64,000 nt of DNA. Origin: Squalus acanthias. Lineage: Eukaryota. Made by a program: the position numbers and the translations under genes. The notes below the pieces were generated by a model. It was not told the origin of the DNA, searched no databases, and worked only from the letters and a program-made list of their open reading frames with translations. Shown one piece after another: positions 13,301-59,576 of this stretch. Positions within the stretch are counted from its first letter, which is position 1, and every line of letters starts with the position of its first letter. The stretch is taken from NCBI GenBank assembly GCA_030390025.1, contig CM059432.1:83454001-83518000 (forward strand), read 5' to 3'.

Positions 13301-14230
13301 CGGGGAGATGGCGACTGGGGAATGGGGGCTCGGGGGGAGAGATGTGGAATGTGGGCTCGGGGGGAGAGATGGAGACTGGGGAATGGGGGCTCGGGGGAGA
13401 GAAGGAGACTGGGGAATGAGGGCTTCCGGGAGAAGGAGACTGGGGAATGGGGGCTCGGGGAGAGAGATGGCGACTGGGGAATGGGGGCTTGGGGAGAGAG
13501 ATGGGGAATGGGGGCTCAGGGGAGAGAAGGAGACTGGGGAATGGGGGCTCAGGGGAGAGAAGGAGACTGGGGAATGGAGGCTCGGGGAGAGAAGGAGACT
13601 GGGGAATGGGGGCTCGGGGAGAGAGATGGAGACTGGGGAATGAGGGCTCTAGGGAGAGATGGAGACTGGGGAATGGGGGCTCGGGGGAGAGAAGGAGACT
13701 GGGGAATGGGGGCTCGGGGGAGAGTGGAGAATGGGGGCTCGGGGAGATGGAGACTGGGGAATGGGGGCTCGGGGGGAGAGATGGAGACTGGGGAATGGGG
13801 GCTCGGGGAGATGGAGACTGGGGAATGGGGGCTCGGGGGGAGAGATGGAGACTGGGGGCTCGGGGAGATGGAGACTGGGGAATGGGCGCTCGGGGAGAGA
13901 TGGAGACTGGGGAATGGGAGCTCTGGGGAGAGATGGGGAATGGGGGCTCGGGGAGAGATGGAGACTGGGGAATGGGGGCTCGGAGAGATGGAGATTGGGG
14001 AATGAAGGCTCCGGGGGGAGATGGAGACTGGGGAATGGGGGCTCGGGGGGAGATGGAGACTGGGGAATGGGGGCTCGGGGAGAGATGGAGACTGGGGAAT
14101 GGGGGCTCGGAGAGATGGAGATTGGGGAATGAGGGCTCCGGGGAGAGATGGAGACTGGGGAATGGGGACTCGGGGAGACGAAGATTGGGGAATGGGGACT
14201 CGGGGAGACGGAGACTGGGGAATGGGGGCT
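10400..14230 (+). repeat. G-rich minisatellite array 1, ~28-32-bp unit GGAGACTGGGGAATGGGGGCTCGGGG(GA)nGAT
   Basis: Direct reading; variant units recur at ~1012-bp and ~563-bp spacings. Confidence 0.97.
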
Positions 14231-14874
14231 CCCACCAATATTGTCACAATATTATCTGCTCACATGCATATTGCTAGAAAGGAAAGAGACATAAGGGGCT
14301 AGTTCCACAATGTAGGGATCTCCCAAGATGAGGGTGCTTTGGTAATCAAAGGGTGGGAATCAGGAGGGAGTTCTCCATCATGCCAGGAGACCAGCTCTGG
14401 TTCAATGGGGAGTGTAGCAGGAGCAGTATCAGGCATACCATAGAATGAGGCACTAATAGGCTTCCCAACCCTCCTAGAATGAACAGAAGTTTCCCAGAAT
14501 CAGGGGAACCGATGGAGGCACAGCTCAGGAGGTCAGCTTTTTAAATTTCCCGCCGCAGTGTGCCCCCTCCCCCGCTCCACGACATCACTGGCTGCTGTCA
14601 AAGCCTCAGGCTCGGTGACATTACCCGACCACCGTTGCAGGGAGCGCCGTCGGGAGGGGGCTGGAGAGTCGGGAATCGGGAGGCTTGGGAATCGTGGGTG
14701 TTCATACAGGGAATCTCTGAACTTGTGAGGACTCTGAAATTGGGGGAGGTATGAAAATGGCGGGGCTCTGAAATTGGGGGGTGGGGGTTGAAATCAGGTA
14801 AGGTCTGTATTTTCGGGGGGGGGGTGGGACTAGAGAGTGGGGGGGAGAAGAGAAGGAGATGGGAAAGGGGATCG

Positions 14875-17800: not shown

Positions 17801-18981
17801 TGGGGGAGAGAAGGAGACTGGGGAATGGAGGCTGGGATAGAGATGGAAACTGGGGAATGGGGGCTTGGGGAGAGATGGAAACTGGGGATTGAGGGCTCGG
17901 GGAGGGATGGAGACTGGGGAATGGGCGCTTGGGGGAGAGAAGGAGACTGGGGAATGAGGGCTCTAGGGAGAGATGGAGACTGAGGAATGAGGGCTCCGGG
18001 GGGAGAAGGAGACTGGGGAATGGGGGCTCGGGGGAGAGATGGAGACTGGGGAATGAGGGCTCTAGGGAGAGATGGAGACTGGGGAATGAGGGCTCGAGGG
18101 AGAGATGGAGACTGGGGAATGGGGGCTCGGGGAGACGGAGACTGGGGAATGGGGGCTCGGGGGAGAGAAGGAGACTGGGGAATGGGGGCTCGGGGGAGAG
18201 ATGGAGACTGGGGAATGGGGGCTCGGGGAGATGGAGACTGGGGAATGGGGGCTCGGGGGAGAGATGGAGACTGGGGAATGGGGGCTCGGGGAGATGGAGA
18301 CTGGGGAATGGGGGCTCGGGGAGAAGGAGACTGGGGAATGGGGGCTCGGGGAGATGGAGACTGGGGAATGGGGGCTAGGGGGAGAGATGGAGACTGGGGA
18401 ATGGGGGCTCGGGGAGGGTGAGATGGAGACTGGGGAATGTGGGCTCAGGGGAGAGATGGAGACTGGGGAATGAGGGCTCCGGGGGGAGATGGAGACTGGG
18501 GAATGGGGGCTCGGGGAGAGATGGAGACTGGGAAATGAGGGCTCGGGGAGATGGAGACTGGGGAATGGGGGCTCGGGGAGAGATGGAGACTGAGGAATGG
18601 GGGCTCGGGGAGAAGGAGACTGGGGAATGGGGGCTCGGGGAGAAGGAGACTGGGGAATGGGGGCTCGGGGAGATGGAGACTGGGGAATGGGGGCTCGGGG
18701 AGCGATGGAGACTGGGGAATGGGGGCTCAGGGGGAGAGATGGAGACTGGGGAATGGGGGCTCAGGGGGAGAGATGGAGACTGTGGAATGGGGGCTCAGGG
18801 GAGAGATGGAGACTGGGGAATGGGGGCTTGGGGAGAGATGGAGACTGGGGAATTGGGGCTCGGGGAGAGATGGAGACTGGGCAATGGGGGCTCGGGGAGA
18901 GATGGAGACTGGGGAATGGGGGCTCGGGGAGAGATGGAGACTGGGGAATGGGGGCTCGGGGAGAGATGGAGACTGGGGGCT
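14875..18981 (+). repeat. G-rich minisatellite array 2, same unit
   Basis: Direct reading; same variant units as array 1. Confidence 0.97.
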
Positions 18982-30551: not shown

Positions 30552-30988
30552 TTACCTCTCTGTAGTCCCAGGAATTAGGAAGAACAATAAGTGCAAACAC
30601 TACTAAAACCTGTAAATCTCTTTCAACCTCACCTTTAGCTAGTTCTACATCATGTCTGGAGTATCTATGTCACCCATTTTTTTCTTCCAATGTGCAATGT
30701 TTTACATTTCTGTACTAAACTTCATTTGCCACTGTTCTGCCCATGTACAGGTCACATTAAAATCTATCTGCCATTTCATAGCCCATCTGCTTAGTTGGTC
30801 TGGATCCCTTTTAAAGGATCAAGCCATTCAGGCCATTCTTAATCGTAGGCAATCTAAATTGGTCCAAAATTCAAATTCTTTTGATCATCCAATTTGTCCT
30901 GATTCTGCATTAGTTTCTGATGATCTAATTCAAGTGTAAACTATTTCATTCAGTAATGTCACATTTAGTAATGTCACATTTAGTTACA

Positions 30989-32025
30989 GGGCTGCTTGAG
31001 GTTGTCCTGCAAGGCCGCTGAAAGTCAGCAGCCTTCCACAAGCCATTCTGCAGCCACTGGGGTAGCACTTCGTAGAAGCACTAGGACAGGCAAAGGCACA
31101 CGGAAAATAGGCATTAAGGGGATGCACAAGAGTGATTAGTTGACTTTGTTATAAAATATTGCATGGATATATGGATAAAGTTTGATTGGAAAGTTTGCTT
31201 TGTGGTGGCTTTTATTTCAGTATTGTGGCCAAGAGGATGCTGTGATGGTCTGGAACAAAGGGATGATAAGGTGTGTGACTGTTGTACAATGCAGTTTTTG
31301 GGTTGTGTTCAGTGGAACTGTAGTCGAATGAGGCGATCGCGGACTGCTCGGCCAGAGACAGAAAGTACTGGTTGCCTCCTCCCTTCCTCCTGCTCCTCCT
31401 CTTCCTCTTCCTCCTTCTCCTCTTCCTCTTTCTTCCCTCTGCGAGCAGCTTGTCCTCTTCTTTGATGCCTCTCCTCCATCTCCTTGTCATGCTGCAGACC
31501 AAGGGGGATGGCAACTACAACACTCATGACTGGGAGCAAGTGGTCTGACCAGAACCCTTGAAGTCAGAACCAAGACTTTCTCCATTTGCAGCATCACTCC
31601 CTGTCACCTCACCAACTTTAAACAACTCTGGAAAGCACTTCTAGAAACTTACACAGAGCCAGTAGAAATTAATTAACAACTAACCTGAGAGTGATTGCTG
31701 ATCCCTTTAAATATCGCTGGGGGGGGGGATCTTCCTGCTGCTGAACACGTGTTCAGCTGTGCGAGGTTAAGACAGGGTGTTAGCTCCAGCGTTGAGGATG
31801 AATTTGGCAGCGCTGGCATTAAATCAGCATTGCATGCTGATTGACATCACGATCTGCCAACTCTACATACTTCCGGAGCACGCTCCTAATGCTCGCCCTG
31901 ACCAAAATGGCGTCCGGCGCGGCCCACACCAGAAGCGTGCGCGCGTGGCGTGGACGCCATTTTCAACACAAAACGGCACCCGTGGCGCTGAAAACTCATG
32001 CACTACCGAGCCGAATTTCTAGCCG
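30989..32025 (-). mobile_element. Truncated transposase-deleted Harbinger (same family as 54325-57341, opposite orientation)
   Basis: 3' end of Myb-like gene (+, 30989-31139), intergenic polyA region, in-frame N/C-terminal transposase fusion (31309-31527, -), promoter motifs, terminus cgaatttctagccg. Confidence 0.8.
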
Positions 32026-35467: not shown

Positions 35468-36890
35468 GTGACTCCCTCCATATGCTTATGGAGGGAGTCA
35501 CAGCACACAGGGAGGTCCTCTTCCCTTCCTATGGGTGGAAGAGACCTCCTCAGGAGATCAACACAGCCTGGTTGCACATTGCAGAGGAGGGCACAAGCAG
35601 GGATGTTGTCAGGAGGACCAGGCTGCAGTGCTGCAAACGATTCAATGATCTCAGTAGATCACAAAACAGTACAAAGCCACACTCAACCTCATCCTGCTGT
35701 GCTTCTCATCACATCCCCATCACTCTGCCTTCCCTACCCTACTCCTGCACATCCTTACTCACACCAACTTACCTTGCACCTCCACCAATCCCTCTCTATC
35801 TACATTATCACATCCTCATCTCACTAGCCACCCCTCACACTCACCCTCATCCTAGTCCAATCATACCAACTAACAACACACAAGGGTAGGCACTTGGGTG
35901 TTTTATGCAATATTCATGTAAAGTTTCTGTTAATGTGGTGTCAAACATTGAAACCATTATTTTCAACATTTTGCGTTCTTGGACAGATTTGTGTGCACCT
36001 TTGGAAGTGGCTTAGTGAGTTGCAGTGAATGGTGAGACATAACGGTACCTCCCGCAATGGTGATGAGTGTGAAAGGAATGGCTTTGGCATTGTAGGGATG
36101 CTTTATGGTGTTGGTGTGGGGTGGTGCCAACCTGGCGCATCATGTGGCAGCATCAAGTGAAGTAAATCTGGCCATGGTGAGGCCATCTCTGGCCTCCTGG
36201 GCAGCAATGTGGTCAGGTGATGATGCCCTGTGTCCTGTGCAGCATCAGTTGATTGCGGAGAAGGTTGGTGTTGTTGTTGGTGCTGCTGGTGTGCCTGGTG
36301 CTGCTGGTGTTGGGGCTGATTGTGGTGGGATTCTGAGGACCAAGGTGAGAGAGTATAAAGGGCACCCATGCTGATGGAATAGATGGCAGGTGAAGTAGAG
36401 ATGACAGAAGCGATCTGTCAATGGTGGGAGAGGTAATGAGGTGAGACTGGATGGAGACTTGTGTAAAGACTTGCAGCATCCTGAATCTGTAGTGGAAATG
36501 CAGTTTAGAGAAGCTAGTGGTTAAGGGAACATTTCTCAATCAGCTGAAAGCTTTGACTTGACATTTGAAGCTGTCAACTCATCAGCTGATTCAATGGCCA
36601 CTGACCTCCCGCCTCAGCTTCACAGACGAGGTTTAGGCACAGCAGGAAACCGGTGGGCGACCTGTCAAATCTAAAAAGCTGGGAAAGAAACCATCGATAA
36701 GTGTCTGTAAACAAGCCACTAATGATTTTAATTGCCTCCCCCGCCACTGCCTGTCGGGTCGCTCAGCGCTGGCAGACCCGACATCGGGTAAGTCCAGTGT
36801 GCACGTTTTGACAGCGGGTTCCTGACCCGCTGTCAATAATTTTAAATTTAACAGCTGACCCGCCACCTGAGCGCTGGCAAAATTCCAACC
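35468..36890. mobile_element. Internally deleted Harbinger derivative with Myb/SANT exon-1 remnant (+) and possible transposase 5' remnant (-)
   Basis: ORF 35482: REVLFP...AWLHIAEE...RRTRLQCCKRFNDLSR, homologous to PRTHVQCRKKFNDLTR of the intact element; terminus aaattccaacc. Confidence 0.7.
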
Positions 36891-37076: not shown

Positions 37077-38240
37077 TTACCCCAGCACCTATGTTTACGG
37101 ATCCAGACAATTCTACCTGGGCATATTAGAGGAGACCTGTCTTTGCCACTTCTGGTTCACAATGGAAGGTGTCACAGAGTTATGCCATTTCCTCTACAGT
37201 GACTTTACCACAGGGACTGGTCTTCCTATAGATGTAAAAGTCACCATTGTTTTAAGCTTTCATACGATCAGATCCTTCCAAGGCACTTAAGGAGACACGT
37301 GTTAGATCAGCCTGTCTGCTGACCACAGATGAATCAAGCAAATGCTTGACACAATGGCTGCTTCTGTGCTCACCAGCCGTGATTTGACACCCATTCATTT
37401 TAATGGACAGAAAACAATCACAGGCTAGCGAATGCAGAAACAGTAAATCCGATCAATGTTTTCAAGGGGCAAATCTTCATCACTTTCTCTGTGGAAAGGA
37501 AGCTTCAGCTGGAGATGGCACAGAACTTTTACCAGGTGACTGAGCTCCCAAAATAGATGGCACCCGTGTGGGTATCATGGCTCCTCACATCCACCACACA
37601 GCCTACATGAACAGAAAAGGCTTTCATTCCATTGATGCTCAGATGGTGTTGGACCACAGGAATAAGATTACGCAAGACAATGCCCAATATCCTGGAAGCA
37701 CCCATGATGTGCTCAGTAGGTGGCAGTTCCCATTGCTTGGATTATTTGAAGGTTCAGATAGACTGGACGGATGGCTGCTTGGAGACCAGAATACCTTCTT
37801 CAGCCCTGACAGATAACTTCCTGAGAAACCCATGAACACCAGCAGACATAAATACAATGAGACACACACCTCAGCCATAATTACTGCTAAGCACACTATT
37901 GGTGTGCTGAAACAAAGGGGGTGAATTTCCATGGGGGTTCTCTCCCTTGTCTGCAGTAACTTCAGTGGAAGAACCATGGAAACATGGGAAAACGGTGTAA
38001 CCACCGTTTGTGACATTTTGTGAGGGTTTCTGCGGCTCTTCTGCTGAAGTTATGGTGGATGAGCGGGAGGACCCCCACAGAAATTCACTGCCAAAGATTC
38101 TGCAGTTTGGCTAGGCACCCAGTGAAGCTCTCAGAATCATCATGGCCTGCTGAATACAGTAGAACGAGCAGGAGACTCACGGTCCACCGTTAGCAGAGGA
38201 GGAAGGATGGCAAAGAGGAGGATGAAATGGAGAAAGCATA
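37077..38240 (+). pseudogene. Fossil Harbinger (HARBI1-like) transposase with frameshifts and inserted MITEs
   Basis: EETCLCHFWFTMEGVTELCH, IDGTRV, NRKGFHSIDAQMVLDH, YPGSTHD, GWLLGD and IGVLKQ|RF all align with the 42099-43259 protein. Confidence 0.85.
37917..38092. mobile_element. 176-bp palindromic MITE with AAA target-site duplication
   Basis: TIRs gggggtgaatttcc / gaaattcactgcc; aaa at 37914-37916 and 38093-38095; removal restores CTG AAA CAA AGA TTC (LKQRF). Confidence 0.85.
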
Positions 38241-39163: not shown

Positions 39164-39916
39164 GGCCCAGAAATTCGCCTCTCCGGCTTGCCGCGGGGGT
39201 AAGGATCGCGCGCGCACTTACCTACCGCGCCTGCCGTTGTGTTTTGGGCCCACGGGAACTTCAGCTCCTGGGCCTGCTCCAAGTGCCGGCACGCAGTGTT
39301 TGCGTGTCTCAGGGGCGCAGTTAGTGCGATGCGTCCCCTGGGATCACGTGGGCCATGGAGAGCCAATGGCAGCAGACCATCTTTCATTCATAGAACCTGT
39401 CAAATCTGTGAATTGAAATCGGCCCTAAAAGAACAGCTAAACTTAAAATAAATTAAAAAAAAACCCATCACATTTATAAAATAACTATAGTTAAATAAAT
39501 TAACCACTTTAAACAAAAATTTAAATTTTTGAAAAAATTAAAAGACTTTTTAAAAGTGATAAAAATAAACTTACCTTTCTTTAAAGTATCTAAAAAAGAT
39601 AAACCTGTTGAAATTTTTTTTAAATTATACTTAATTAACCACTTACCTTGTTGAAAACGGGTCTTGCGCCTCCTTTTCATAAGCGTAGGTTCTTCACTAC
39701 TTAACCTCCTGTAGAAACCTGAAAAAAAATCTAAGTTTGCTGCGTGCGCGCAGCCTCTACCGCGCACGCGGTTCACCTAGGAACTGCCCCCTTCACCAGA
39801 CCAGAAGTTCCGGTTTCCCGCGCATGCGCAGTGCATGCAGGAAACCAGCACTTCGGGACGTCTTACGGGTAAGTACGCACTGTGTACTCACCCGGGAACG
39901 GCCGAATTTTTGGCCC
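39164..39916. mobile_element. 753-bp non-autonomous Harbinger-type MITE, ATA TSD
   Basis: Termini ggcccagaaattcg / cgaatttttggccc; ata at 39161-39163 and 39917-39919; empty site atggaatATAatgtggg is CR1 sequence; CpG-rich arms, AT-rich core. Confidence 0.9.
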
Positions 39917-40197
39917 ATAATGTGGGCAAGTGTGAAATTATCCACTTTAGTAGGAAGAATGGAAAAACAGAATATTTTTTAAAAGGTGAGAGATAGTAAA
40001 TGTTGGTATTCAGAGGGATTTGGGTGTCCTTGTACATGAATCACTGAAAGCAAATGGTATGTTAGCCTTTATTGCAAGGGAGTTGGAGTACAAAAATAAG
40101 GCAGTCTTGCTGATATATAGCGCTTTGGGGAGACCACACCTGGAGTACTGTGTACAGTTTTGGCCTCCTTACCTAAGGAAGGATATACTTGCCTTGG

Positions 40198-41386: not shown

Positions 41387-41754
41387 AGGCTGTGCAACGA
41401 AGGTTCACTCGATTGATTCCTGGGATGAGAGGGCTGTCTATGAGCAGAGATTGAGTAGACTAGGCCTATATGCTCTGAAGTTTAGAAGAATGAGAGATGA
41501 TCTCATTGAAATGAATAAAATTCTTAGCGGGCTTGACGCTGAGAGGCTATTTCCCCTGGCTGGGGAGTCTAGAACTAGGAGTCATAGGGGTAAAAATTCA
41601 GTTGGTTGCGCCTCCCGTTAGCGCCTTAAATGGGCGCTAATGGGGCGTTAAGGCGCTAACGCCCGGGCGCAGCGCTGTTTGCGCCGCTCGAGAACTTAAC
41701 TTAAGATTGTGCGGCGGCGCTAAAACTTACCGCTGCGACCACCTGCGCGCGCAG

Positions 41755-41903
41755 ATTGTGACGTAATTCCGTGGTGCAACGCCCTTGGGGCGCCCCGGAG
41801 CGGAAATTGAGTGGCACCCCCTGCCTTACCGCCTGGCGCTTCCAACGACCGGAAGACTGGAACGTTATCAATCGGTGTGGGGCTGGGGGGGGCGCTATTT
41901 AAA
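41755..41903 (+). promoter_or_regulatory. Putative transposase promoter (CRE-like TGACGT plus TATA-like TATTTAAA)
   Basis: gattgtgacgtaat near 41755 and tatttaaa 41896-41903; equivalent motifs in related elements near 54426/54564 (+) and 31839/31706 (-). Confidence 0.5.
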
Positions 41904-42098
41904 GGGGGCCTCTTCCTGTCTTTTTCTGTGGTCGACATTTATGCACCACTCGTTCTGAGAGAGAGAGAGAGATTCGGAGAGAGAGAGAGAGAGACTTCTA
42001 CATTGACTCAACGCTTTGTGAGGTAGTTTTGCCTAGTTCATCCTAACTTTGCTGCTACTTTCGTTGCTGTACCTCATTACTTTTCTGGCAAAGAGAAT

Positions 42099-43259
42099 AT
42101 GGGGGCTGCAATGATTGGGGGCGTCGTCCTGCTCCAGCTCAATCGGAGGAGAGTGAGACGCAGACAGAGAGTGGCAATGATGGCCAGACGGAGGAGGGCC
42201 ATCAGGCGCATGTACAGGAGAGCTTACCCTCCCAGGGTATATCGTGAACAGCTCTCCTACATCCACATGTCCGAGGAGCTGTGTTTGCGAAGGCTGCGAT
42301 TCAGCAAGGAGGTGGTCACTGAGCTCTGCCACCTGCTGCAGCCAGATCTGCAGCCTCAGCTGAGGTCCAGGACGTCTCTGTCGGTGGCAGTGAAGGTCAC
42401 AGTGGCTTTGAACTTCTACGCCACTGGCTCATTCCAAGCTGCTGTTGGGGACCTCGCCAATATCTCCCAGTTTGCGGTGCATCGCTGCATCCGGCAGGTC
42501 ACCAATGCCCTCTTCACAAGGAGACGAGACTTCATCTCCTTCCCTATGACCCCAGACAAGCAGCATGACCGTGCTATGGGCTTTGCGAGGGTAGCGGGCT
42601 TCCCCATGGTGCAGGGCGCCATTGACTGCACGCATGTGGCTTTGCGTGCTCCGCGAGAGAATGCAGAGGAGTTCCGGAACAGAAAGGGGTTCCATTCCTT
42701 GAATGTGCAGTTGGTCTGTGACCACAGACAGGTGATTCTCGCTGTCAATGCCCACTATCCGGGCAGCTGCCACGATGCTTTCATCCTGCGCCAGAGTACT
42801 GTGGCAGAAATTTTCGAGGCACCGCATCAGCCAGTTGGTTGGCTTCTGGGGGACAAGGGGTACGCATTGAGCACCTGGCTGATGACACCGCTCCGTGCGC
42901 CAAACACCCCTGCTGAGCTGCGGTACCAGGAAAGCCAACAAGCAACCAGGAACATTATTGAGCGCACAATCGGCGTGCTCAAACAACGATTCCGCTGTCT
43001 GGACCATTCCGGAGGAGCCCTGCAGTACTCGCCTGAGCAAGTTTCCAAATTCGTAGTGGTGTGCTGCATGTTGCACAACATGGCAATCCTCAGGACGCAG
43101 CCAATGCCACCAGGCCTTGCAGCACCACAAGAGGAGGAGGAGGAAGAGGAGGAACAGGCCGAGGACGATGATCAGCAGCAGCACCAAGGCAGGAGGGCGG
43201 CCCACAATGGTCAAACTGCAAGGGCCGTCCGTCAACGACTAATAGCAAGCCGCTTCTAG
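42099..43259 (+). CDS. Harbinger DDE transposase (HARBI1-like, DDE_Tnp_4 type), 386 aa
   Basis: ATG-to-TAG ORF with GAIDCTH, NRKGFHSLNVQ, YPGSCHDA, LGDKGY, RNIIERTIGVLKQRF, CCMLHN; catalytic acidic residues present. Confidence 0.95.
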   Translation: MGAAMIGGVVLLQLNRRRVRRRQRVAMMARRRRAIRRMYRRAYPPRVYREQLSYIHMSEELCLRRLRFSKEVVTELCHLLQPDLQPQLRSRTSLSVAVKVTVALNFYATGSFQAAVGDLANISQFAVHRCIRQVTNALFTRRRDFISFPMTPDKQHDRAMGFARVAGFPMVQGAIDCTHVALRAPRENAEEFRNRKGFHSLNVQLVCDHRQVILAVNAHYPGSCHDAFILRQSTVAEIFEAPHQPVGWLLGDKGYALSTWLMTPLRAPNTPAELRYQESQQATRNIIERTIGVLKQRFRCLDHSGGALQYSPEQVSKFVVVCCMLHNMAILRTQPMPPGLAAPQEEEEEEEEQAEDDDQQQHQGRRAAHNGQTARAVRQRLIASRF

Positions 43260-43370
43260 GGCCCCTGCCAGTGCTGCAAACACGAATCAACCCAGCACGC
43301 AACCCCTAAGCCGGCCAAGGCACCAATAATTCCAACCACCAGCCATGTATATTTTGAATACAGAAACTTA

Positions 43371-43424
43371 TTTATTGTACAAACTCTGTGTGTGTCAATT
43401 CCTCATGACAAACTCAGAAATAAA
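43371..43424. terminator. Opposed polyadenylation signals of the two Harbinger genes
   Basis: tttatt 43371-43376 (AATAAA on -) and aataaa 43419-43424 (+), between the two stop codons. Confidence 0.55.
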
Positions 43425-43551
43425 CACAAAAAAACAGTCAATAACATAACTGGTTCTCACAACCTGGAGATAATGTCCAAAACACTAAACAAAAGTTGGG
43501 CCATGAACCTCGGCCTTTAATAAAAAAATGACCAGCATTTTGGCACACCTC

Positions 43552-44618
43552 CTACTTTTTGCCCTTCGAGGGTGATCTCCTTCCCTTGCGCACTTCCCCC
43601 CTTCTAACCCTACTGCTCCTCCGTAATGGGACCTCAGTGGCTGCAGCAAGGCTGGTGGAAGGCTGCTGCTTGTCAGACCCTGACACTGCAGATGCCCCTG
43701 AAGGACGGCCTCGACCACTTCTGGGCCTGGAGGGCCCGGCTGCAGACTGCACCAACTCTGCATGGGCGGCAGCAGTCTGTCCTACAGGCGGTGGCAAGTG
43801 CAGTGGAGAAGTGACAGTGTTGGCAGCAGGAATGCTGTCATCGTGAGAGAGGACAGCAACTCCCTGCTCGCCCGACACACTGGCACTCCCACGGGGCAGC
43901 ACTTCAGCATCCGGAGCAATTTGCCGGAGAACAGATTGCTGGCCTGCAGCGGCGCGGTGACAGCCCCGGGGACATGTGCACGAACCATCGAGGATGGCAG
44001 CAGTCAGTGCTCGCGTGGCCTCAATCTGAGTCTGCATGAGAGCAGTCTCAGATGGATTCCTGGCAGCCAGTGACTGAATTGCAGCAGTAAGCTTTAGTGT
44101 GGCATCCGCCTGTGCTACAGCGAAGTGCTCCACACTCCTTGCCAGTGCCTCAATGCATTCGGGCACCCTTCCCACTGCACCCATGAGCTCAGTGTGCATG
44201 CCCACCGCCTGGCTGTTCATTTCTGCAATCAGCCGCTCCTCCTCTGCGTCCATTGCATTAGGAGTGTCTGGCATACTCTCCCTCTGGGGAGAAGGCTCCC
44301 GTTCTTCCCTCCCCCCCCCATGGCGTGGCTGCAGCCCGCTGGGTCCTGGAACTTCACCATCATCAGCCCCTTCCCCCCTGCTCCCCCGTTCTTCCCTCCC
44401 CCCGCAATGGCGTTGCTGCAGCCCGCTGGGTCCTGGAACTTCACCATCATCAGCCCCTTCCCCCCTGCTCCCCTCCGGGGAAGGCGTGTTCCCAGTGTGG
44501 CCATGGGCTTCCTCGGGAGAGGGTGGCACTGATGCTCCGGCTTCCTCTTCCTCCTCAGCTGCAGCATCACTCCCAGTGGCAGCTTCAGGGACCATCTCCT
44601 CAGCTGGTGAATCACCAT
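43552..44618 (-). CDS. Harbinger Myb/SANT-like protein, exon 3 (acidic/low-complexity and helical region, basic C-terminus); spliced product 488 aa
   Basis: Acceptor cctgctttcag|AT; the phase-1 join is in frame with ORF 43552-44595; TAG at 43552-43554. Confidence 0.85.
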
Positions 44619-44777
44619 CTGAAAGCAGGGAGGTACAAGAGTGGCTTTAGCGTGAGGACAGGGTGGCAGTAAGGGAGGAATAAGTGCAGCGAGTTAGCAA
44701 GTTGGATTGAAAGTGTCAAAGGCTGGTATTGTGAGGGACAAGTGGAAGGACAGAGGACAAAAAGGTGATGACCTTAC

Positions 44778-44940
44778 CATTGCTGTCCACAACGGGGTCG
44801 GCGTCTCCAGTGGCGACGGGACCGATCACCCGGCTTGCCACAATCCTGTGGACGCGCTCCTCCAGATCGCTGAGGGGTTGCAGCTGAAGCCGCCCTCCAC
44901 CCGTCCGTTGCTGCTGTCTCCGATTATGAGCCAGCTTAGC
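44778..44940 (-). CDS. Harbinger Myb/SANT-like protein, exon 2 (163 nt)
   Basis: Acceptor ttttcttgcag|GCT; AKLAHNRRQQQRTGGG...LSDLEERV; donor G|GTAAGG (phase 1). Confidence 0.88.
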
Positions 44941-44967
44941 CTGCAAGAAAAAGGACAGCATCTGAGT

Positions 44968-45130
44968 CAATATACAGCCATGGTCTTGCCTGATGTGCCT
45001 CCCATAGGTGAATAGCCCTTACAATATGCAGCCATGGTCTTGCCTGATGTGCCTCCCATAGGTGAATAGCCCTTACAATATGCAGCCATGGTCTTGCCTG
45101 ATGTGCCTCCCATAGGTGAATAGCCCTTAC
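44968..45130. repeat. 3 x 54-bp tandem repeat inside intron 1 of the Myb-like gene
   Basis: gccatggtcttgcctgatgtgcctcccataggtgaatagcccttac at 44977, 45031 and 45085. Confidence 0.95.
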
Positions 45131-45278
45131 TGTATGCAAAGTGTGGAATGTGTGTGTGTGTTTGATGAAAGGGCCATAGGTGTTGCATGAGTGTTGTGCT
45201 TTGGGGTTTTAAGACCCTCTGGCCATAGAGTGAGGTTGAGATGGAGGGATGGAGAGGTATTGAGAAAAAGCCACTCAC

Positions 45279-45515
45279 CCTGACGACCCGAGTGAGGTCA
45301 TTGAACTTTTTGCGGCACTGGACATGGGTCCTGGGCACCATGCTCCTGGAGGAGACGCTCTGAGCCACCTCCCTCCACACTCTTCTGAACTCGCGTGGCA
45401 AAGGCCTCCTGCCACTCTCCGGGAACAGCATGCATCGTCTGCGCTCCACTGCGTCAACCAGAGCATCCAAGGCCCGCTCGGTGAAGCGATGAGCGCGTTC
45501 TCTCACCCTCTCCAT
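45279..45515 (-). CDS. Harbinger Myb/SANT-like (trihelix) DNA-binding protein, exon 1 (79 codons)
   Basis: MERVRERAHRFTERALDALV...WREVAQSV...PRTHVQCRKKFNDLTRVVR then donor AGG|GTGAGT (phase 0). Confidence 0.9.
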
Positions 45516-45945
45516 GCTTGGCAGCAAAATGGATTACAGGTCTCTCCAGGCTGAGATTCAAGGCTGCAATGAGCAGGGTGTGGCTGGGGAGCAAGTGGCC
45601 CCCCCCGCTTTAAGAAGTGTCCGGCGCCAGTGTGTCTGTGTTCCCTCGCTAACTGGCAGCAGCTGCGCTGCGCTCGTGCGCTGAGGTCGCGCCTCACTCC
45701 TAGGCCTTTGTGCCTTAAGAGAGGTGTGCAGCGCCTAATTTAGCGCTCCACTCACCTCCCGGGGCGGTAAAAGTGAAGTTTCCTGTCAGTGCCGATAATT
45801 AGCGCCAGGCGCTAATATTTGCGCGCGGACGATATTTGCGCCCCAAATGGGGCGCGACCTAATTTCTACCCCATAGTCTCAGGATAAGGGGTTGGCCATT
45901 TTGGATTGAGATGAGGAGAAATTTCTTTACTCAGAGGATTGTGAA

Positions 45946-49000: not shown

Positions 49001-50583
49001 TTGGTTTGTCGCTCCTACATGTTAAACATATTTTCAATGCCCCCAGAAAATTTATACTTAGCTTTAGCAAAAGCAGTTGGGCCAGAAGCAGTGCTCAGCA
49101 GTGAGTAGAATAGGCTCCGTTTCCGATTTATCATCGTCCTCATATATCCAAGATGCCCCATTGCCCTCCCTGGAGCCCTCCTGCACTGCGCTCTTCCGGT
49201 TCCAGTTTGCAGTGTGAATTGGAGTAGTGACGAATGCCGAGACTGCCCGCACCTGCCCGCTTTGTTTAAAGTGATAAACGTTAGAATGAATAGATGGAGC
49301 TCCAGGAAGGAGCAGAGGCAGCAGTTAAAGCAAGTTGCGAGAAGGAAGAAGAGTATTTTTTAAAAACTTCCTAAGTGCACTGTGAGCTGGTTACAATCTC
49401 CCGGCAGTTTATCAGACCTGCTCTGGTCCCAGTCTCCTTGCTGGAAGCAGGAGTCAGAACTGAATACACATCCCACTCATACACAGACACCTCAGTGCAC
49501 ACACAGTCCGCTTGGCATCTTTACATTGACCGTTGGCTGTGCCCCTTCTCATTCGCCGCTATGCCCTCTGTGACATATTCTAATTAGAAATGCAGGAAAA
49601 TATGGAGTGAGTTACCAACAGTGAGCTCAGTGCATGAGATTTCAAAATTTACAGTATCTTTGCCTTAACTATGAACTAAGAGAATACCACCAGTGAGTTA
49701 TCTTGCTGGGGCGCGATCAGGCTTCTGGGCTGCTATTGAGCCGTGTACTTTCCAATTTGATGCGTACAAATGTGTTAAAATTTGACTTGGTTATATCTAT
49801 GATATAGTCATATCAGTTGTTGAACTTTTAAGCCTCAGTTGGCTGAAAAACAATGGGGGAGAAATTAACTCGCTGAAATATTGGCCGACAGCATTCCTAA
49901 GGTAGTGGAGGAGAAGGGGTTTACAATTTAAAACGCCATTTTGCAAAGCAAGGAAATCATTTAAAAAATATTTTTAATCTTCAGCTAGCACTGTCGGCCA
50001 TGTTATGATGTGACAGGCAATGCAGCCAATCCCCATACCCAACAAAGGGCAACGATCCAACTGCAATGCAAATACAGAAATGAGCTATTATGGAAATGAG
50101 TCCGATGCTGGGAGATCTGCTGGGGTCAAGGCTCATTGGGATGGACAGACAAGAAACTCACACCACCACTGATCTGGAAAGATTGCCACCCGATTGAAAA
50201 ATCCGCCTCTAAGGAGTTTAAAAACCAGCTGCAGTTAAAATCCATGTCCCAGCCTAACTCAATACAAACAACGTGAGTACAATGCAGTCTGACCTCTGAA
50301 GTAGATACATACTATGAGGTAAACTCTCATTTTACACCACCTGGGCAATAATCTGGAGGAGAGCAGATTGTCTGCTCTTTTCTAATGGAATGAATATTGG
50401 GCGGGTTCTATAATATGCAGGTGATCCTCTCCGCCAGGAGGGGGAAGACAAAAATTTATCCTGATATGCTTGCTCAGTTGTGACAGCCAGTTACTTTTGA
50501 ATGCAGCTGAGAGTTAGTCAATCTAGGGCTCCAGAGACTGCTTTTCAGGTATTAAATGACCTGAAGCTGTTTAACAAGGTATG

Positions 50584-53500
50584 TTGAGTTGAGTAGAGTG
50601 GAATTCAGCTGAGTGGAGTAGAGTTAAGCTGAGTGGAGTTGAGCTGAGTGGAGTGGAGTTGAGCTGAGTTGAGTGGAGTTGAGTGGAGCTGAGTTGAGTG
50701 GAGTTGAGTGGAATTGAGTTGAGTGGAGTTGAGTGGAGTTGAGTGGAATTGAGTGGAGTTGAGTGGAGTTGAGTTGAGTGGAATTGAGTTGAGTTGAATG
50801 GAATTGAATTGAATTGAGTTGAGTGGAGTTGAGTTAAGTGGAGCTGAGTTGAGTTGAGTGGAGTTGAGTAGAATTGAGTTGAGTTGAGTTGAGTTGAGTG
50901 GAATTGAGTTGAGTTGAGTGGAGTTGAGTGGAATTGAGTTGAGTGGAATTGAGTGGAGTTGAGTGGAGTTGAGTGGAATTGAGTTGAGTTGAGTGGAGTT
51001 AAGTTGAGTGGAGTGGAGTGGAGTGGAGTGGAATTGAGTTGAATTGAGTTGAGTGGAGTTGAGTGGAGCTGAGTGGATTGGAGTGGATTGGAGTGGAGTT
51101 GAGTTGAGTTGAGTGGAGTTGAGTTGAGTGGAGTTAAGTTGAGTGGAGTGGAGTTGAGTGGAGTTGAGTGGAGTTGAGTGGAGTTGAGTTGAGTGGAGTG
51201 GAGTGGAGTGGAATTGAGTTGAGTTGAGTTGAGTTGAGTTGAGTGGAGTTGAGTGGAGTTGAGTGGAGCTGAGTGGATTGGAGTGGAGTTGAGTTGAGTG
51301 GAGTGGAGTGGAGTTGAGTTGAGTGGAGTTGAGTGGAGTGGAGTTGAGTGGAGTGGAGTTGAATGGAGTTGAGCTGAGTGGAGTGGAGTGGAGTTGAGTG
51401 GAGTGGAGTGGAGTTGAGTGGAATTGAGTTGAGTTGAGTGGAGTTGAGTGGAGTTGAGTTGAGTGGAGTGGAGTTGAGTGGAGTGGAGTGGAGTGGAGTG
51501 GAATTGAGTTGAGTTGAGTGGAGTTAAGTTGAGTGGAGTGGAGTGGAGTGGAGTGTTTTGGAGTGGAGTTGAGTGGAATTGAGTTGAGTTGAGTGGAGTT
51601 GAGTGGAATTGAGTTGAGTGGAGTTGAGTGGAGTGGAGTTGAGTTGAGTGGAGTTGAGTGGAGTGGAGTTGAGTGGAGTTGAGCTGAGTGGAGTGGAGTG
51701 GAGTGGAGTGGAGTGGAGTTGAGTTGAGTTGAGTGGAATTGAGTTGAGTTGAGTGGAGTTGAGTGGAATTGAGTTGAGTTGAGTGGAGTGGAGTGGAGTG
51801 GAGTTGAGTTAAGTGGAGCTGAGTTGAGTTGAGTGGAGTGGAGTTGAGTAGAATTGAGTTGAGTTGAGTTGAGTGGAATTGAGTTGAGTTGAGTGGAGTT
51901 GAGTGGAATTGAGTTGAGTGGAATTGAGTTGAGTGGAGTTGAGTGGAATTGAGTTGAGTTGAGTGGAGTTAAGTTGAGTGGAGTTCGAGTGGAGTGGAGT
52001 GGAGTGGAGTTGAGTGGAATTGAGTTGAGTTGAGTGGAGTTGAGTGGAATTGAGTTGAGTGGAGTTGAGTGGAGCTGAGTGGATTGGAGTGGAGTTGAGT
52101 TGAGTTGAGTTGAGTGGAGTTGAGTTGAGTGGAGTTAAGTTGAGTGGAGTGGAGTGGAGTTGAGTGGAGTGGAGTGGAGTTGAGTTGAGTTGAGTTGAGT
52201 GGAGTGGAGTGGAGTGGAGTTGAGTTGAGTGGAGTTGAGTTGAGTTGAGTGGAGTTGAGTGGAATTGAGTTGAGTGGAGTTGAGTGGTGCTGAGTGGATT
52301 GGAGTGGAGTTGAGTTGAGTGGAGTGGAGTGGAGTTGAGTTGAGTGGAGTTGAGTGGAGTGGTGTGGAGTTGAGTGGAGTGGAGTTGAGTGGAGTTGAGC
52401 TGAGTGGAGTGGAGTGGAGTTGAGTTGAGTTGAGTGAATTGAGTTGAGTTGAGTGGAGTGGAGTGGAGTGGAGTGGAGTTGAGTGGAGTTGAGTTGAGTT
52501 GAGTGGAGTTGAGTGGAATTGAGTTGAGTGGAGTTGAGTGGAGTGGAGTTGAGTTGAGTGGAGTTGAGTGGAGTGGAGTTGAGTGGAGTTGAGCTGAGTG
52601 GAGTGGAGTGGAGTTGAGTGGAGTGGAGTGGAGTTGAGTTGAGTTGAGTGGAATTGAGTTGAGTTGAGTGGAGTTGAGTGGAATTGAGTTGAGTTGAGTG
52701 GAGTGGAGTGGAGTTGAGTTAAGTGGAGCTGAGTTGAGTTGAGTGGAGTGGAGTTGAGTAGAATTGAGTTGAGTTGAGTTGAGTGGAATTGAGTTGAGTT
52801 GAGTGGAGTTGAGTGGAATTGAGTTGAGTGGAATTGAGTTGAGTGGAGTTGAGTGGAATTGAGTTGAGTTGAGTGGAGTTAAGTTGAGTGGAGTTCGAGT
52901 GGAGTGGAGTGGAGTGGAGTTGAGTGGAATTGAGTTGAGTTGAGTGGAGTTGAGTGGAATTGAGTTGAGTGGAGTTGAGTGGAGCTGAGTGGATTGGAGT
53001 GGAGTTGAGTTGAGTTGAGTGGAGTTGAGTTGAGTGGAGTTAAGTTGAGTGGAGTGGAGTGGAGTGGAGTGGAGTGGAGTTGAGTTGAGTGGAGTGGAGT
53101 GGAGTGGAGTTGAGTTGAGTGGAGTTGAGTTGAGTTGAGTGGAGTTGAGTGGAATTGAGTTGAGTGGAGTTGAGTGGAGCTGAGTGGATTGGAGTGGAGT
53201 TGAGTTGAGTGGAGTGGAGTGGAGTTGAGTTGAGTGGAGTTGAGTGGAGTGGTGTGGAGTTGAGTGGAGTGGAGTTGAGTGGAGTTGAGCTGAGTGGAGT
53301 GGAGTGGAGTTGAGTTGAGTTGAGTGAATTGAGTTGAGTTGAGTGGAGTGGAGTGGAGTGGAGTGGAGTGGAGTTGAGTGGAGTTGAGTTGAGTTGAGTT
53401 GAGTTGAGTTGAGTGGAGTGGAGTTGAGTGGAGTGGAGTGGAGTTGAGTGGAATTGAGTTGAGTTGAGTGGAGCTGAGTGGATTGGAGTGGAGTTGAGTT

Positions 53501-54348
53501 GAGTGGAGTGGAGTGGAGTTGAGTTGAGTGGAGTTGAGTGGAGTGGAGTTGAGTGGAGTTGAGCTGAGTGGAGTTGAGTGGAGTGGAGTGGAGTTGAGTT
53601 GAGTTGAGTGGAATTGAGTTGAGTTGAGTGGAGTTGAGTGGAATTGAGTTGAGTTGAGTGGAGTGGAGTGGAGTGGAGTTGAGTGGAGTGGAGTGGAGTT
53701 GAGTGGAGTTGAGCTGAGTTGAGTTGAGTGTGGAGTTGAGTGGAGTTGAGTGGAGTTGAGTGGAGTGGGGTGGAGTGGGGTGGAGTGGAGTTGAGCTGAG
53801 TGGAGTGGAGTGGAGTTGAGTGGAGTTGAGTGGAGTGGAGTGGAGTGGGGTGGAGTGGAGTTGAGCTGAGTGGAGTGGAGTGGAGTTGAGTTGAGTGGAG
53901 TGGAGTTGAGTTGAGTGGAGTTGAGCTGAGTTGAGTTGAGTGTGGAGTTGAGTGGAGTTGAGTGGAGTGGAGTCGAGCTGAGTTGAGTGGAGTTGAGTGG
54001 AGTGGAGTGGAGTGGAGTTGAGTAGAGTTGAGTGGAGTTGAGTGGAATGGAGTGGAGTTGAGTTGAGTGGAATTCAGTTGAGTGGAGTTGAGTTGAGTGG
54101 AGTTGAGTGGAGTTGAGTTGAGTTGAGTGGAGTTGAGTTGAGTTGAGTGGAGTTGAGTGGAGTTGAGTTGAGTTGAGTTGAGTGGAGTTGAGTGGAGTGG
54201 AGTTGAGTTGAGTTGAGTTGAGTGGAATTCAGTTGAGTGGAGTTGAGTTGAGTGTAGTTGAGGGGAGTTGAGTTGAGTTGAGTGGAGTTGCGTTGAGCTA
54301 AGTGGAGCTGAGTGGAGTTGAGTTGAGTGGAATTCAGTTGAGTAGAGT
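50584..54348 (+). repeat. 3.8-kb pentanucleotide satellite (GAGTG/GAGTT, with GAATT and GAGCT variants)
   Basis: Direct reading; rare variants recur at ~0.9-kb spacing. Confidence 0.97.
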
Positions 54349-57341
54349 CGCAGTGGTCCCCATTTGGGGCAGTTCGATAGAGCAGCTGTTGCCTGCGTTC
54401 GGCAGAAGAATGCTAATGAGGCAAATTGTGACGTCAATCAGTGTGTAATGCTGAATTGACACACGACCTGCTATTTTGGACATCGCCATTCAACTGTACG
54501 CCCTCTCTAAAGCACGCACAGCTGAACCTGCTTTCAGCTGCATAATGGAGCCCCCACCAGTGCTATGTAAAGGGACACATGCAACTTTGAGAAAAGTTGC
54601 TTTTTGTTCAGGTATTGTTTCCTGTACAGTTTATTTGAGTTGTGGCTTGTTGTAAGACATTTAAAAAGTTGTTGAAGTGTGCCGGGAGTTCAGGGAGTGC
54701 TGCTGGATGTTTGCAAAGCTTTGGCTCTTAAAGGAAGGCCTTTGAGAAGATCACTTGCTCCCAGTCCTGGGTGTTCTAGTTGCAGTCCCCCTTGGGCTGC
54801 AGCATGACATGGAGATGGAGCAGAGGCAGCAAAGGGGACAAGCTGCTCGCAGAGGGAGGAGGAGGAGGAGAAGAGGAAGAAGCAGTAGAGGAGGAAGCGG
54901 AAGAGGAGGAGGAGGAAGAGAGGAGGAGGAAGCAGAAGGAAGGAGGAAACCCAGACAGTCCCTTTCTGGCTAGAATATCCGGGATCGAATCATTTGCCTG
55001 CGGTACCAGTGACCACAACCCCAATTCCTCATTCAATATTAGTCCCACACCTTCTGACCATCACAGCGTCCTCTAGGCCACAATACTGAAATAAAAGCCA
55101 CCGCAAAGCAAACTTTCCAATCCAACTTTTTCCATATATGCATCCAATATTACATCAAAGAATCAACTAATCACCCTTGTGCATTCCCTTAGTGACTGTC
55201 TTGCGTGTACCTTTGCCTATCCTCGTGCTGCTATGCAATGCTACCCCAGTGCCTGCAGCACGGCTGGTGGAAGGCTGCTGACTTTCAGTGGGGGAGACTG
55301 CAGATGGCCTTGCAGGACAACCTTGAGGAGCTCTGGGCCTAGTATGCCCGGCTTCGGACTCCACCACCTCGGCATGGGCGGCAGCAGTCTGGGCTGGTTG
55401 ACAGGCAACAGCAAGGGCATTGGTGGAGTGGCAGTGGTGGAAGGATGAATGCTGTCGTCCCGCGAGAGGACAGTAGGGTCGTCCTCCACAGATCCATTAT
55501 CACTCCCACGGGGCAGCACCTCAGCAATCCTAGCAATCTGCTGGAGTACAGACTGCTGGACTGCTGTGACACCCTGCAAGCCCTTTTCAACACTCGTAAA
55601 CCCAGCCATGATGGCAGCAGTCTGAGCTTGCATGAATTCAGTCTGAGCTTCCATTGCAGCACTCAGACGTTGGGTGGATACTGCTTGTGCTGCAATAGAA
55701 GCAGAGACTTTGGCCATCAGACGCTGCATGATGGTTGGATCCACAAGTGCGGTAATGGATCTGCCCACCCCTTCCACGCTGGAAAGGATGGGCTCCACGC
55801 TCTGCGCAAAGCCCTGTGCAAGGTTGAAGCCAGACTCCTCCATGCTCCTTGACATTGCATTCAGGCTTTCTGGCAGGCCTCCCAATGCACCAAGCATTTC
55901 ATTGTGCATACCCATCAGCGTTCTTCTGTAGGCCGCCCCATCGAAGTCTTCATCTGAGTCCTGAGCAGTAGAACTCATGTGCAACCTCGCCGTCTGGGGA
56001 GCTGGCAGCAGCCCACTCGTGTCCAGTGTCTCACCGTGTGCAGATCCCGCATCGAACCTATCCTCTAAAGTACGCGCATTGTCAATATCTGAGCTGGTGG
56101 CTGGGAGTTGAAATCGAGTGATGGTGTTTCTTTTTCTTCTTCACTCTCCTCTCCCTCTTCTTGTTCAACCACTGACTGGGCAGGCTGGATTTCTTGGGTG
56201 TCTGAAATGATAAAGGCACATGGTGTGGTGAGGGGAGAGGGGGAAAGCAAGAGGTACATGGTTGCACCATGTTTAGATTGTAAATTAGAAGAGATTGTGG
56301 GATGGGGGGAAGTGGGATGTAAGAAGGAGGATAATGTATGAGGTTACCAGCATCTTGTATTCTTTCAGATCCGCCACTGGCCATGGGCTCAGCCATGTCC
56401 CTGCCAAGAATGGCCAGCACCGTCTCCTCCATGGGGGTGAGGTGATGCAGGCGAGCCTGTCCCCCACCGATTAAATTCTGCTGGTGCTGGTTATGCGCCA
56501 CCTTTTCCTGCAAGAGAAAGGGAAGTGTGTTAGTGAGTGTGGTGTAATGTGTTTGGGTGATGTGGCTGCCATGGTTGAATAACTGACCGTGTTCAGTCTG
56601 TGAGATGTGCATGTGAGGCTTGCAGCAGTGGTAAGTGTATGAGGGTGAGGTGAATCTAGGAATGTGAGGTGTGCCTCGTGTTTGGTAGATTGTTGATAGG
56701 TGAGCGATGGGGGTGCGGTGCATTGAGCAGTGTGTGAGGCTAGTGGTGCAGTTGGTAAGAGATGGCTTTTAAAGATGCATTCACTGACCTTGACCACTTG
56801 TGTGAGGTCATTAAACTTCTTTCGGCACTGGAACCACGTCCTGGGGGCGACACTGGCAGTGACCATCTCGGCGATCTGGTCTCACATCCTGCTTACAGTG
56901 TTTCTGGATGGCCTTCTGGCCCCCTGTGGGTAGAGGACCTCTCTTCGAGTATTTGCCCCCTGCACAAAGGCCTCAAAGGCTGCGTCCCGAGACCCTGGGT
57001 GCCGCTTCCCTGGCCCGTTGGGCCATTTTGGTTAGTGCTGAAGCAGTTTTAAAATTTTTGCTCACCGGAAGGCAGCTCACCTTTAAGAGTTGCAGACTGC
57101 CTTTAAGAGGCACAGGCTAGGTTGAAGTAAAGCTAGCCTCGCACGAACATCGCAAACTTTGGCCCCCTACTGAGCACACAGCCAGTCAGCAGCACATTCT
57201 GCGTTGGGCTGTGCGCTGCTTTCATGCGAAGTAGCAGGCAGCATGAATTTTACGTGCTGTCTGAATTCCTTTCAACGGGTGCGGGCAGATCGCGCATCGT
57301 GATCCCCGCACCTGTTTTTGTGCCTAATCCAATTTCACCCC
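54325..57341 (+). mobile_element. Transposase-deleted Harbinger retaining a full-length (pseudogenised) Myb-like gene
   Basis: Right TIR aatttcacccc (57331-57341); fused transposase N- and C-terminal remnants near 54770-55010; 3-exon Myb-like gene on the - strand; left end merges with the satellite. Confidence 0.85.
55167..57026 (-). pseudogene. Myb/SANT-like Harbinger gene, exons 57026-56789, 56507-56348, 56201-55167; frameshifts and an in-frame TGA
   Basis: MAQRAREAAPR...PRTWFQCRKKFNDLTQVVK | EKVAHN...GGG...LTPMEE | ...GMHNEMLGAL...; same intron phases (0, 1) as the intact gene. Confidence 0.85.
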
Positions 57342-59576
57342 GGTTGTTTTTCTTAAGAGGAGTTGGTTAGTATATCTACTGTAAATATATGTATGTTTAT
57401 ATTACTGTTTTATTATTGTTTTATATTCACTTGTTCATCTTTTGTTCAATAAATTTGCTTCTTAAAGTCTAAAATGAGTTCTGATATTTTAATATTCTGC
57501 TACTTTTCAAAGACGGAAGAGTTAAAATCTCTCGGGTCTCATGCTGCGGTGGCCCAGACTGTTTGCCAGCTCCCACGGCCCCTCCTCACATGACTCTTGC
57601 TCCCAGTTAAAATAGACCCTTTAGAAGCTGAAGTACTCAGAGTAAGAGAGACAGAAAGCCTCAAAAGTGTGGTGCGGGGTGGTCACACCATAGGTAATCG
57701 ATATGGTAAATTCCCAATCTCAGACAAGCCATCAATGGACCTATTGATTGGAGCTTAAGCATTTTGTTAATGGGAGGAAGGGCAAAATCAGAGGGTACTG
57801 TGCTGCTAGGCCAGAGGGTTGTGTTGTTTGAAGGACAGCAGCCAAGGGTTAAATAATTGGCATAGACAAATATTCAGGAATTTTATTTCATTACCTTTAG
57901 GATAAGAGAGTATTCATGCAAAACTTTTTATCAGGAGAATAAATGGGCAAAGTCCACAACAGGACAGAGTGTATGTGGCGTGTGGAAGAATTAATAGCTG
58001 AGGCCTTTTGTTGTTCCATGCTTTCTTATGTTCTTATCCTACGATCTCCTAACACATGGCACTAATGTGCTTCCGTGACATGGAGTCACAAATTAAATGT
58101 ATTCTAATCTTGTTGAATTTTTGTAATGATGAAAATCATAAAGCGAGGTATGCTTTGGGGTTGAAATTCCACTTTGTCCTATTTTTAGCGTGCCTTTTAA
58201 TGTGTTCATATCAAATTCTTGCATGCACTATTTTAACAAAGTTATTACCCATTTAACAAACTTTATTTTACTGGGGTTCAATGTCCTTTGTGCACTATTT
58301 AATTCAAACAAATTAATGACTTTGTTAAATTAGTGAACACAGGATTTTACTCAAATGTATTAACCATTGCACGGAAAATAGCACACAGAGGAATTTCAAC
58401 CGCAGCAAAACAAAGTACTGATTCCAAAATGGAATATGATATGCAATCTTACTCTCTGTCTACAATCTACCAAAAACACAGGCTTATTAAAAGCAAAGAT
58501 GAGTACAATAAATGCAGTCTAAAAATGTGGTGCGGCTTTTGAAAGTAAACAATGTTGGGATTGTTAATTTATATTTTCTGGCGAAGTCTCTGAATAAGGA
58601 CAGTTTCTCATTTGGAGGGGATGGTATCTGAATTATATTAACTGCTGGTATCATACTACACTGGCCATGGACGCTGTTTGCTTTTAAAGGCAAGAAATAG
58701 TCTCATAATATCTAAGAATACATTTAAAAAGACCTATTTTGGTAGCTAGTCCACTTTGTAAAACTATAGTGCAGCTAGTTCATGGATAATACAGCTATAC
58801 ATTTGGTCCAAGCTCATGAAAATCACAGTGCACCTATTGTATTAGTGTTTCCTTACGTGGCAGACCTGACAAGAGACATTTACTTTTGATTTGATAAGGA
58901 TCTGTCCATTAATCTGAATAAGGAAGGCATAAATTGTAATGCTGTTAAAAAAAGCCTTCCAAGCCATACCTCTTCGAATTGTAAAAGAATTGCATGCTTC
59001 AGCTTGTATTAGCAGATCACACTATCTCTGTGGTTCCTCTGAAAATATATGTGCTGCCAAAAAGACCATTACCAGGACAGAGTGGGCATATAGAGTTACA
59101 CCTGAAGCTTATACATGAACCTTGTATCACCACTATGTTCTCATCTGGAAACTGATTCAAAAATGTTACCACATTACATTAAAAACAATGGGATTGGCCC
59201 CTAATACAGTTAGAATGGATAGACAAAAAAGGCTGATTCTACTGGTCTGATATTTAGCTTCATAGCCCCAAAAAGATTAATAATTTCCATGTGCACATTG
59301 GGAAATATTACTTAATAGCTTGTAGGCCAGGACTGATTTAAGCATGTTCCCAGATTATATGAGAATTTATTCTGTGGGGGGTGATTAATAATTTTCACTC
59401 CTCACAGGATGGACAGTTCACATGAGGATATTGCAAATGATAATTCACTGATGTGAATTTGCGACTTAATGGTTGGTATCCTTTGTTTGATCAAGGAATT
59501 TAAGAACAGGTCTAAAGAGGTGCTTGATACTCCATTATAGTTCAAATTAGCTACTGACTTTACCCCCTCACCATTT

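Follow-up and report, generated by a model that had tools for sequence, protein, structure and literature searches.

A one-ended shark Harbinger relic with a deleted transposase core and a decayed Myb-like gene

Harbinger elements in the window

The window, by which we mean the whole 64-kb stretch of DNA that was analysed, consists mostly of LINE fragments, together with two satellites and several Harbinger pieces. Three of these pieces are labelled here: the element under study (A, 54346-57341), an inverted copy (B, 30987-32024) and an intact neighbour (C, 41587-45872). The features outside A are as follows.

9736-18978: G-rich minisatellite, 9 kb in units of 32-33 bp; a 4.5-kb duplication within it contains TIR-like motifs at 10060, 10286, 14554 and 14764
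30987..32024, minus strand: B, truncated relative with a left TIR, the same transposase loss and the last ~50 Myb codons only
31527-31312, minus strand: mini-ORF of B, in frame and open, 72 codons
35473-35658, plus strand: decayed Myb exon 1, from one or two older Harbingers
37114-37918, plus strand: decayed transposase core, likewise from one or two older Harbingers
39164-39917: Harbinger-type MITE, ~750 bp, with matching inverted ends, splitting a LINE reverse transcriptase frame
41587..45872, plus strand: C, intact two-gene Harbinger with both TIRs and an ATA target duplication, 9 kb from A
42099-43259, plus strand: DDE transposase of C, 386 aa (PF13359, E 5e-38)
45515-43552, minus strand: Myb-like gene of C, three exons, 488 aa, open (PF13873, E 1e-9)
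50583-54345: pentamer satellite, 3.8 kb of GAGTG/GAGTT units with internal higher-order repeats, taking the place of the left end of A

C, which the first-pass annotation does not mention, fixes the ancestral layout, with two genes that converge, and is evidence of an intact transposase in this genome. It apparently sits inside a LINE fragment and is possibly young; exon 3 of its Myb-like gene contains an 87-bp tandem duplication and intron 1 a 54-bp triplication. C belongs to another subfamily, with a similar TIR and a Myb-like protein 40% identical to that of A, and we use it as a structural reference and regard it as a possible trans donor for A-type ends. The two older Harbinger pieces (35473-35658 and 37114-37918) both lie on the plus strand and are not convergent. 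Element A itself is made up of the following parts.

54346..54766, plus strand: left subterminal and transposase 5' region; the terminal ~90 bp and left TIR are missing, and it adjoins the pentamer satellite
54767..54856, plus strand: transposase N-terminal remnant, 30 codons, with a mutated start (CTG, against ATG in B)
54857..54934, plus strand: (GGA)n purine tract of 78 bp with the deletion junction, examined by three-frame translation
54935..55012, plus strand: transposase C-terminal remnant, 26 tail codons containing a premature TAG in addition to the original TGA, matching P0005 residues 369-390
55013..55168, no strand assigned: spacer between the convergent genes, with AATAAA at 55090 on the transposase strand
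55169..56201, minus strand: Myb-like exon 3, with frameshifts near 56108 and 55392; matches four shark proteins at 43-54% identity
56348..56507, minus strand: Myb-like exon 2, open, placed by AG/GT sites and by alignment to C and P0001-P0003
56789..57026, minus strand: Myb-like exon 1 (Myb/SANT domain), with a frameshift near 56987 and TGA in place of a conserved Trp (56884-56882)
57027..57341, minus strand: promoter side of the Myb-like gene, with the right subterminal region and the TIR (inward reading GGGGTGAAATT), which is of the type found in C

The first-pass annotation had begun the element at 54325, a position that falls inside the pentamer satellite; A starts at about 54346, at the edge of that array. 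B and C have a subterminal motif at a distance of 164-167 bp from their terminus; in A the motif recurs, but only 75 bp separate it from the first base at the satellite edge, and we judge from this that the left end of A (~90 bp including the TIR) has been lost. The right terminus is present, with a PIF/Harbinger TIR of the C type ending at 57341. Of the 3-bp target-site duplication that marks such elements, A and B each lack one flank, and C has ATA on both sides. A TATA-like motif is common to A and C and is visible in B too. The TIR-like motif at 49855 was considered as a left end for A and rejected, as it shows no similarity to A or B and belongs to a separate small element. Extra TIR-like motifs of the A/C type occur at 49855, 58157, 59990 and 8295, making the window rich in Harbinger-derived ends.

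Loss of the transposase core in two copies

In both A (54767-55012, plus strand) and B (31527-31309, minus strand), an N-terminal transposase remnant is joined to an acidic tail. In a local search of 124 proteins, the N-terminal part matched residues 1-32, and the C-terminal part residues 369-390, of P0005, a 396-aa HARBI1-like protein of Pristiophorus japonicus (E 2e-7 and 1e-4, respectively, for A). The N-terminal part further matched P0008 and P0009. The A remnant is 53% identical to the N-termini of these three proteins and 77% identical to that of B. Since P0005 has an Arg run from residue 31 and an acidic tract from residue 352, about 310 codons are missing from A and B, including the DDE core. 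The three catalytic motifs of the C transposase (at 174, 251 and 285) all fall within the lost stretch, and tblastn with this intact transposase as the query found no core sequence at A or at B. The earlier description of some 30 transposase codons joined to a Glu-rich tail in both copies is thus borne out, and the transposase core is absent from both, as expected of a DNA-binding-only lineage. Loss of the same stretch in two copies calls for shared descent or a deletion hot spot; chance is an unlikely explanation.

The junctions differ in detail. Read in the N-terminal frame, the purine tract of A gives six Arg codons; one frame on, it gives a run of Glu, and a second shift restores the first frame. 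The stretches coding for Arg and for Glu have a perfect direct repeat of 14 bp in common. The B junction is in frame and has no Arg run, whereas A keeps up to six Arg codons with the frame change. In the 4.3 kb of C, the longest exact repeat with copies at least 300 bp apart is 12 bp, and the Arg/Glu repeat reaches only 8 bp, tied with four other pairs. Sharks and rays head the transposase match list (best 120 of 319 hits); among those 120, 21 relatives reach both ends of the protein and 7 of the 21 have both RRR and EEEE runs.

A functional in-frame mini-protein was considered and rejected: the B frame is open, but in A the start is mutated, a stop is present and the frame is kept only by way of two shifts. 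The 72-aa mini-ORF of B had no match among 1.84 billion representatives, and a comparison of its N-terminal part with longer proteins returned one candidate and none that scored, so that no direct parent was found; both are weak tests with very short queries. A 23-base pattern common to A and B had no matches in metagenome and viral contigs.

The alignment of B with A is limited to 54395-55335 of A, over which the two are 69-75% identical overall. The first reading had taken B for a second copy of a family that kept its Myb-like gene; B retains only about 50 Myb codons and therefore provides no evidence for Myb retention, and with two copies at this level of identity a 'Myb-only family' is not confirmed. 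Identity between A and B is uneven, amounting to 63, 54, 89, 63, 76, 88 and 83% over seven segments (chi-square p 3e-13). By part, the 5' region stands at 54%, the N-remnant at 89%, the C-remnant at 63% and the spacer (55071-55170) at 88%, and the two remnants differ from each other in divergence (Fisher p 5.5e-5). At the protein level, A and B have 23 of 30 residues in common in the N-remnants and 13 of 25 in the C-remnants, the latter hardly below or above what the B C-remnant has in common with the full-length P0057 (14 of 25) and P0005 (12 of 25). Changes at the three codon positions of the remnants number 13, 7 and 16, a bias that is not significant (p 0.17). After a single deletion followed by neutral change, adjacent dead segments should diverge alike, and those of A and B do not. 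This pattern favours separate parents or later recombination, with the qualification that divergence of this kind does not prove separate events.

We also observed that the N-remnant (54751-54858 against 31540-31433), at 89% identity between flanks of 54-63%, has no synonymous bias. Recombination between subfamilies or a cis-acting role may lie behind its high identity.

The Myb-like gene and its relatives in sequencing runs

In A the Myb-like gene is split into three exons bounded by GT/AG sites, its intron phases are those of C, and it is convergent with the transposase gene. Read through its lesions (X), it encodes 477 residues that are 52% identical to P0001-P0003 and 40% identical to the C protein. 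P0002 and P0003 carry PF13873, whereas the scores of exon 1 of A for PF13837 (E 0.024) and for PF13873 (E 0.035) stay under the Pfam cut-off. The four proteins matched by the Myb-like exon come from Heptranchias perlo and Pristiophorus japonicus, which, with the sharks and rays at the head of the transposase list, points to a cartilaginous fish as host. Altogether the gene has three frameshifts and one stop (56884-56882); A therefore has the second PIF/Harbinger gene, with its Myb/SANT-like domain, as a pseudogene and has no intact DNA-binding gene. These results agree with the first-pass annotation, which had described a three-exon Myb-like gene, since decayed, retained alongside a polyA region, promoter motifs and one terminus; a single AATAAA (55090), the TATA-like motif and the right TIR (57341) are present. 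A search of metagenomes with Myb exon 3 gave 144 pattern matches, none of which was confirmed. One P. japonicus protein model, P0010, has Myb/SANT and Harbinger DDE domains fused (PF13873 and PF13359), as either a real fusion or an annotation artefact.

Words of A were found in sequencing runs of six organisms; 20 of the 23 rows hold part of A, and none holds half of it. Four of the 23 runs (X1, X6, X9 and X18) were compared with A at 80% likeness, leaving out 54846-54947. Three DNA-type runs, from three organisms, yielded 41,158, 71,959 and 54,039 contig matches, and X18, a putative RNA run, yielded 1,614. The differences described below are drawn from those listed, namely 40 of 565 substitutions, 12 of 23 indels, 15 of 1,160 joints and 24 of 8,225 loose ends. 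That X1 contains the A locus itself follows from a contig identical to 57301-57520, which spans the terminus and continues into the flank. In X1, 355 places differ from A in at least 20 of 100; changes of the A>G plus T>C kind (131) exceed those of the G>A plus C>T kind (52), an excess that would fit an element aged by deamination.

Indels that compensate for the frameshifts of A are common in these contigs. Among the indels listed, one at 56108 occurs in at least 60, 84, 80 and 8 contigs of the four runs (66, 38, 36 and 46% of depth), one at 56986 in at least 24, 19, 18 and 0 contigs (61, 40, 47 and 0% of depth), and one at 55391 in at least 37, 43, 40 and 7 contigs (at most 2% of depth in the DNA runs, 37% in X18). 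Loose ends at 55397 number at least 156 contigs in X6 and at least 142 in X9. The frameshifts of A are therefore not family-wide. Their absence from many relatives fits an open Myb gene in the family, as far as can be judged from contigs in which deleted and full-length elements are unsorted and from listed substitutions that do not include the stop site; it does not bear on selection after the transposase was lost.

Short-repeat deletions are common in the family, and they recur within the Myb-like gene as well. Joints from 55330-55332 to 56109-56134 appear in all four runs, among the joints listed, and in X6 at least 98 contigs break off from A after 55332 to resume at 56096, which amounts to a 763-bp loss (55333-56095) in Myb exon 3 between two GAGCT motifs. 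A 208-bp loss (56435-56642) across an 11-bp repeat was seen in at least 1, 5, 8 and 1 contigs of the four runs. At 80% likeness such joints may stem from sister subfamilies. They show that losses in the A family affect the Myb-like gene and not the transposase gene alone. The deletions 55333-56095 and 56435-56642, common to three organisms, may mark old amplified non-autonomous subfamilies.

Origin of the deletion and comparison with known Harbingers

Element A is what remains, dead and with one end, of a Harbinger that had suffered an internal deletion and that belonged to a very abundant shark and ray family. It is a real but ordinary relic, a deletion derivative of an already described kind. 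How it lost its core is best explained, in our judgement, by a deletion guided by repeats and probably recurrent, a reading that we hold to be somewhat on the probable side. The N-terminal Arg run of the parent (AGG/AGA) and its C-terminal Glu run (GAG/GAA) would be one and the same (GGA)n repeat at the DNA level, about 0.9 kb apart; repair or replication may have slipped from one run to the other, removing the core between them. The Myb-like gene would have been spared because it lies outside both repeats, and not necessarily by selection. A and B would probably descend from separate events in related subfamilies, and, as long as it had two ends, such a derivative could have been mobilized by the transposase of an intact relative acting in trans, as any non-autonomous element could.

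Several results point this way. The remnants match full-length relatives, the junction lies within the purine tract in A and in B alike, and the 14-bp repeat of A is longer than any exact repeat at least 300 bp apart in C. Neither the phase of the junction nor the number of Arg codons is the same in A and B, the divergence of the two copies is uneven, and relatives show other deletions between short repeats (5 and 11 bp). Of the two explanations offered by the first-pass annotation, these results favour deletion between GAG/AGG-rich tracts. Against the reading as a whole stand the mere 8 bp of Arg/Glu repeat in C, the codon-position bias of p 0.17, the failure to find a direct parent and the apparently open family Myb gene. 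Recurrence in particular is weakened by there being two copies only: (GGA)n tracts are unstable, and a single deletion common to both copies may have been followed by changes of phase and length. An N-remnant at 89% beside flanks of 54-63% requires recombination between subfamilies whether there was one deletion or several.

One ancient deletion might instead have founded a Myb-only lineage with a selected DNA-binding gene, which would recognize its own ends, borrow transposase from relatives such as C and later recombine, A and B being dead members. We consider this unlikely, if worth retaining. It would account for the loss of the same gene region in two copies that are 25-30% apart and for the greater similarity of the N-remnants to each other (77%) than to any of three full-length proteins (45-53%). 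Subterminal sequence differs among A, B and C, which would favour a private end-binding protein, the frameshifts of A are missing from many relatives, and there is precedent in C. inopinata and sea kraits. However, B has no Myb gene, the uneven divergence of the remnants is incompatible with a single deletion and uniform neutral change thereafter, and derivatives that destroy the Myb gene recur in three organisms.

A single deletion might also have produced an ordinary non-autonomous lineage, amplified by virtue of both ends and shortness, with the Myb-like gene as neutral cargo. The loss common to A and B agrees with this, as do the decay of the Myb-like gene in A, its absence from B and its trimming in further derivatives, but the mosaic divergence of A and B and their differing junction phase do not, and we find it distinctly unlikely. 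A collapse of the assembly across the purine tract is extremely improbable: the contig comparison leaves out 54846-54947 and so supplies no bridging contig, but two diverged, oppositely oriented copies show the junction, and an intact relative with similar tracts was assembled in full 9 kb away.

The concept of a DNA-binding-only Harbinger is already known (PMC8437027, PMC13668399). Sea kraits have multi-copy solo-ORF variants of Harbinger-Snek, which the text available ascribes to large deletions, with 452 intact DNA-binding-only copies in L. colubrina and 2263 transposase-only variants (PMC8437027). Like A, some of these are vertebrate Harbinger variants with the DNA-binding protein alone; unlike the multi-copy, intact Snek variants, A is decayed and one-ended, and the available portion of that report names no Arg/Glu breakpoint repeat for Snek (PMC8437027). 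In C. inopinata, expanded MADF-only derivatives accompany one intact DDE gene, whose supply in trans is proposed and presented as hypothetical (PMC13668399). These elements, Harbinger-1M_cIno and -2M_cIno, resemble A as internal deletion products with a DNA-binding gene and no DDE gene, but they are recently active, with intact nematode MADF genes and both TIRs, whereas A holds a shark Myb/SANT pseudogene (PMC13668399). Fish Harbingers of the Harbinger3_DR type encode a DDE transposase together with a Myb-like protein, which binds their ends and serves to import the transposase; C fits such autonomous elements, whereas A and B are without the catalytic core (PMC9179366, PMC9392472). Repeated internal deletion between short direct repeats is also described for Ozma, a Tc1/mariner element with microhomology-derived MITEs, in which one parent gave several derivatives across 6-8-bp repeats; the Ozma products are non-coding (PMC3814204). 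The newt genome was tried as a precedent for transposase-less Myb Harbingers and was not borne out by the accessible text (PMC5741667). A literature search, with subscription papers, Repbase entries and supplements outside its scope, found no core-deleted shark Harbinger and no Arg/Glu codon repeat as a breakpoint.

If the hot spot is recurrent, it would give a sequence-level reason for the splitting of a two-gene transposon into single-gene offshoots. A bolder and quite unlikely proposal is that the Arg and Glu that the shark Harbinger transposase needs write a (GGA)n hot spot into its gene, repeatedly excising the catalytic core, and that some of the products are long-lived Myb-only lineages with a selected, subfamily-specific end-binding gene, drawing on a transposase pool common to several shark species. 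Given such a hot spot, the very large shark family would allow selection on DNA-binding-only offshoots to be told apart from mere frequency, a question that is hypothetical in what is available of PMC13668399. For teleosts the available text of PMC9179366 reports no single-ORF Harbinger, and for elephant shark none, and it names other cartilaginous fish as a gap; the abundant Harbingers found here in a cartilaginous fish, one of them intact, bear on that gap.
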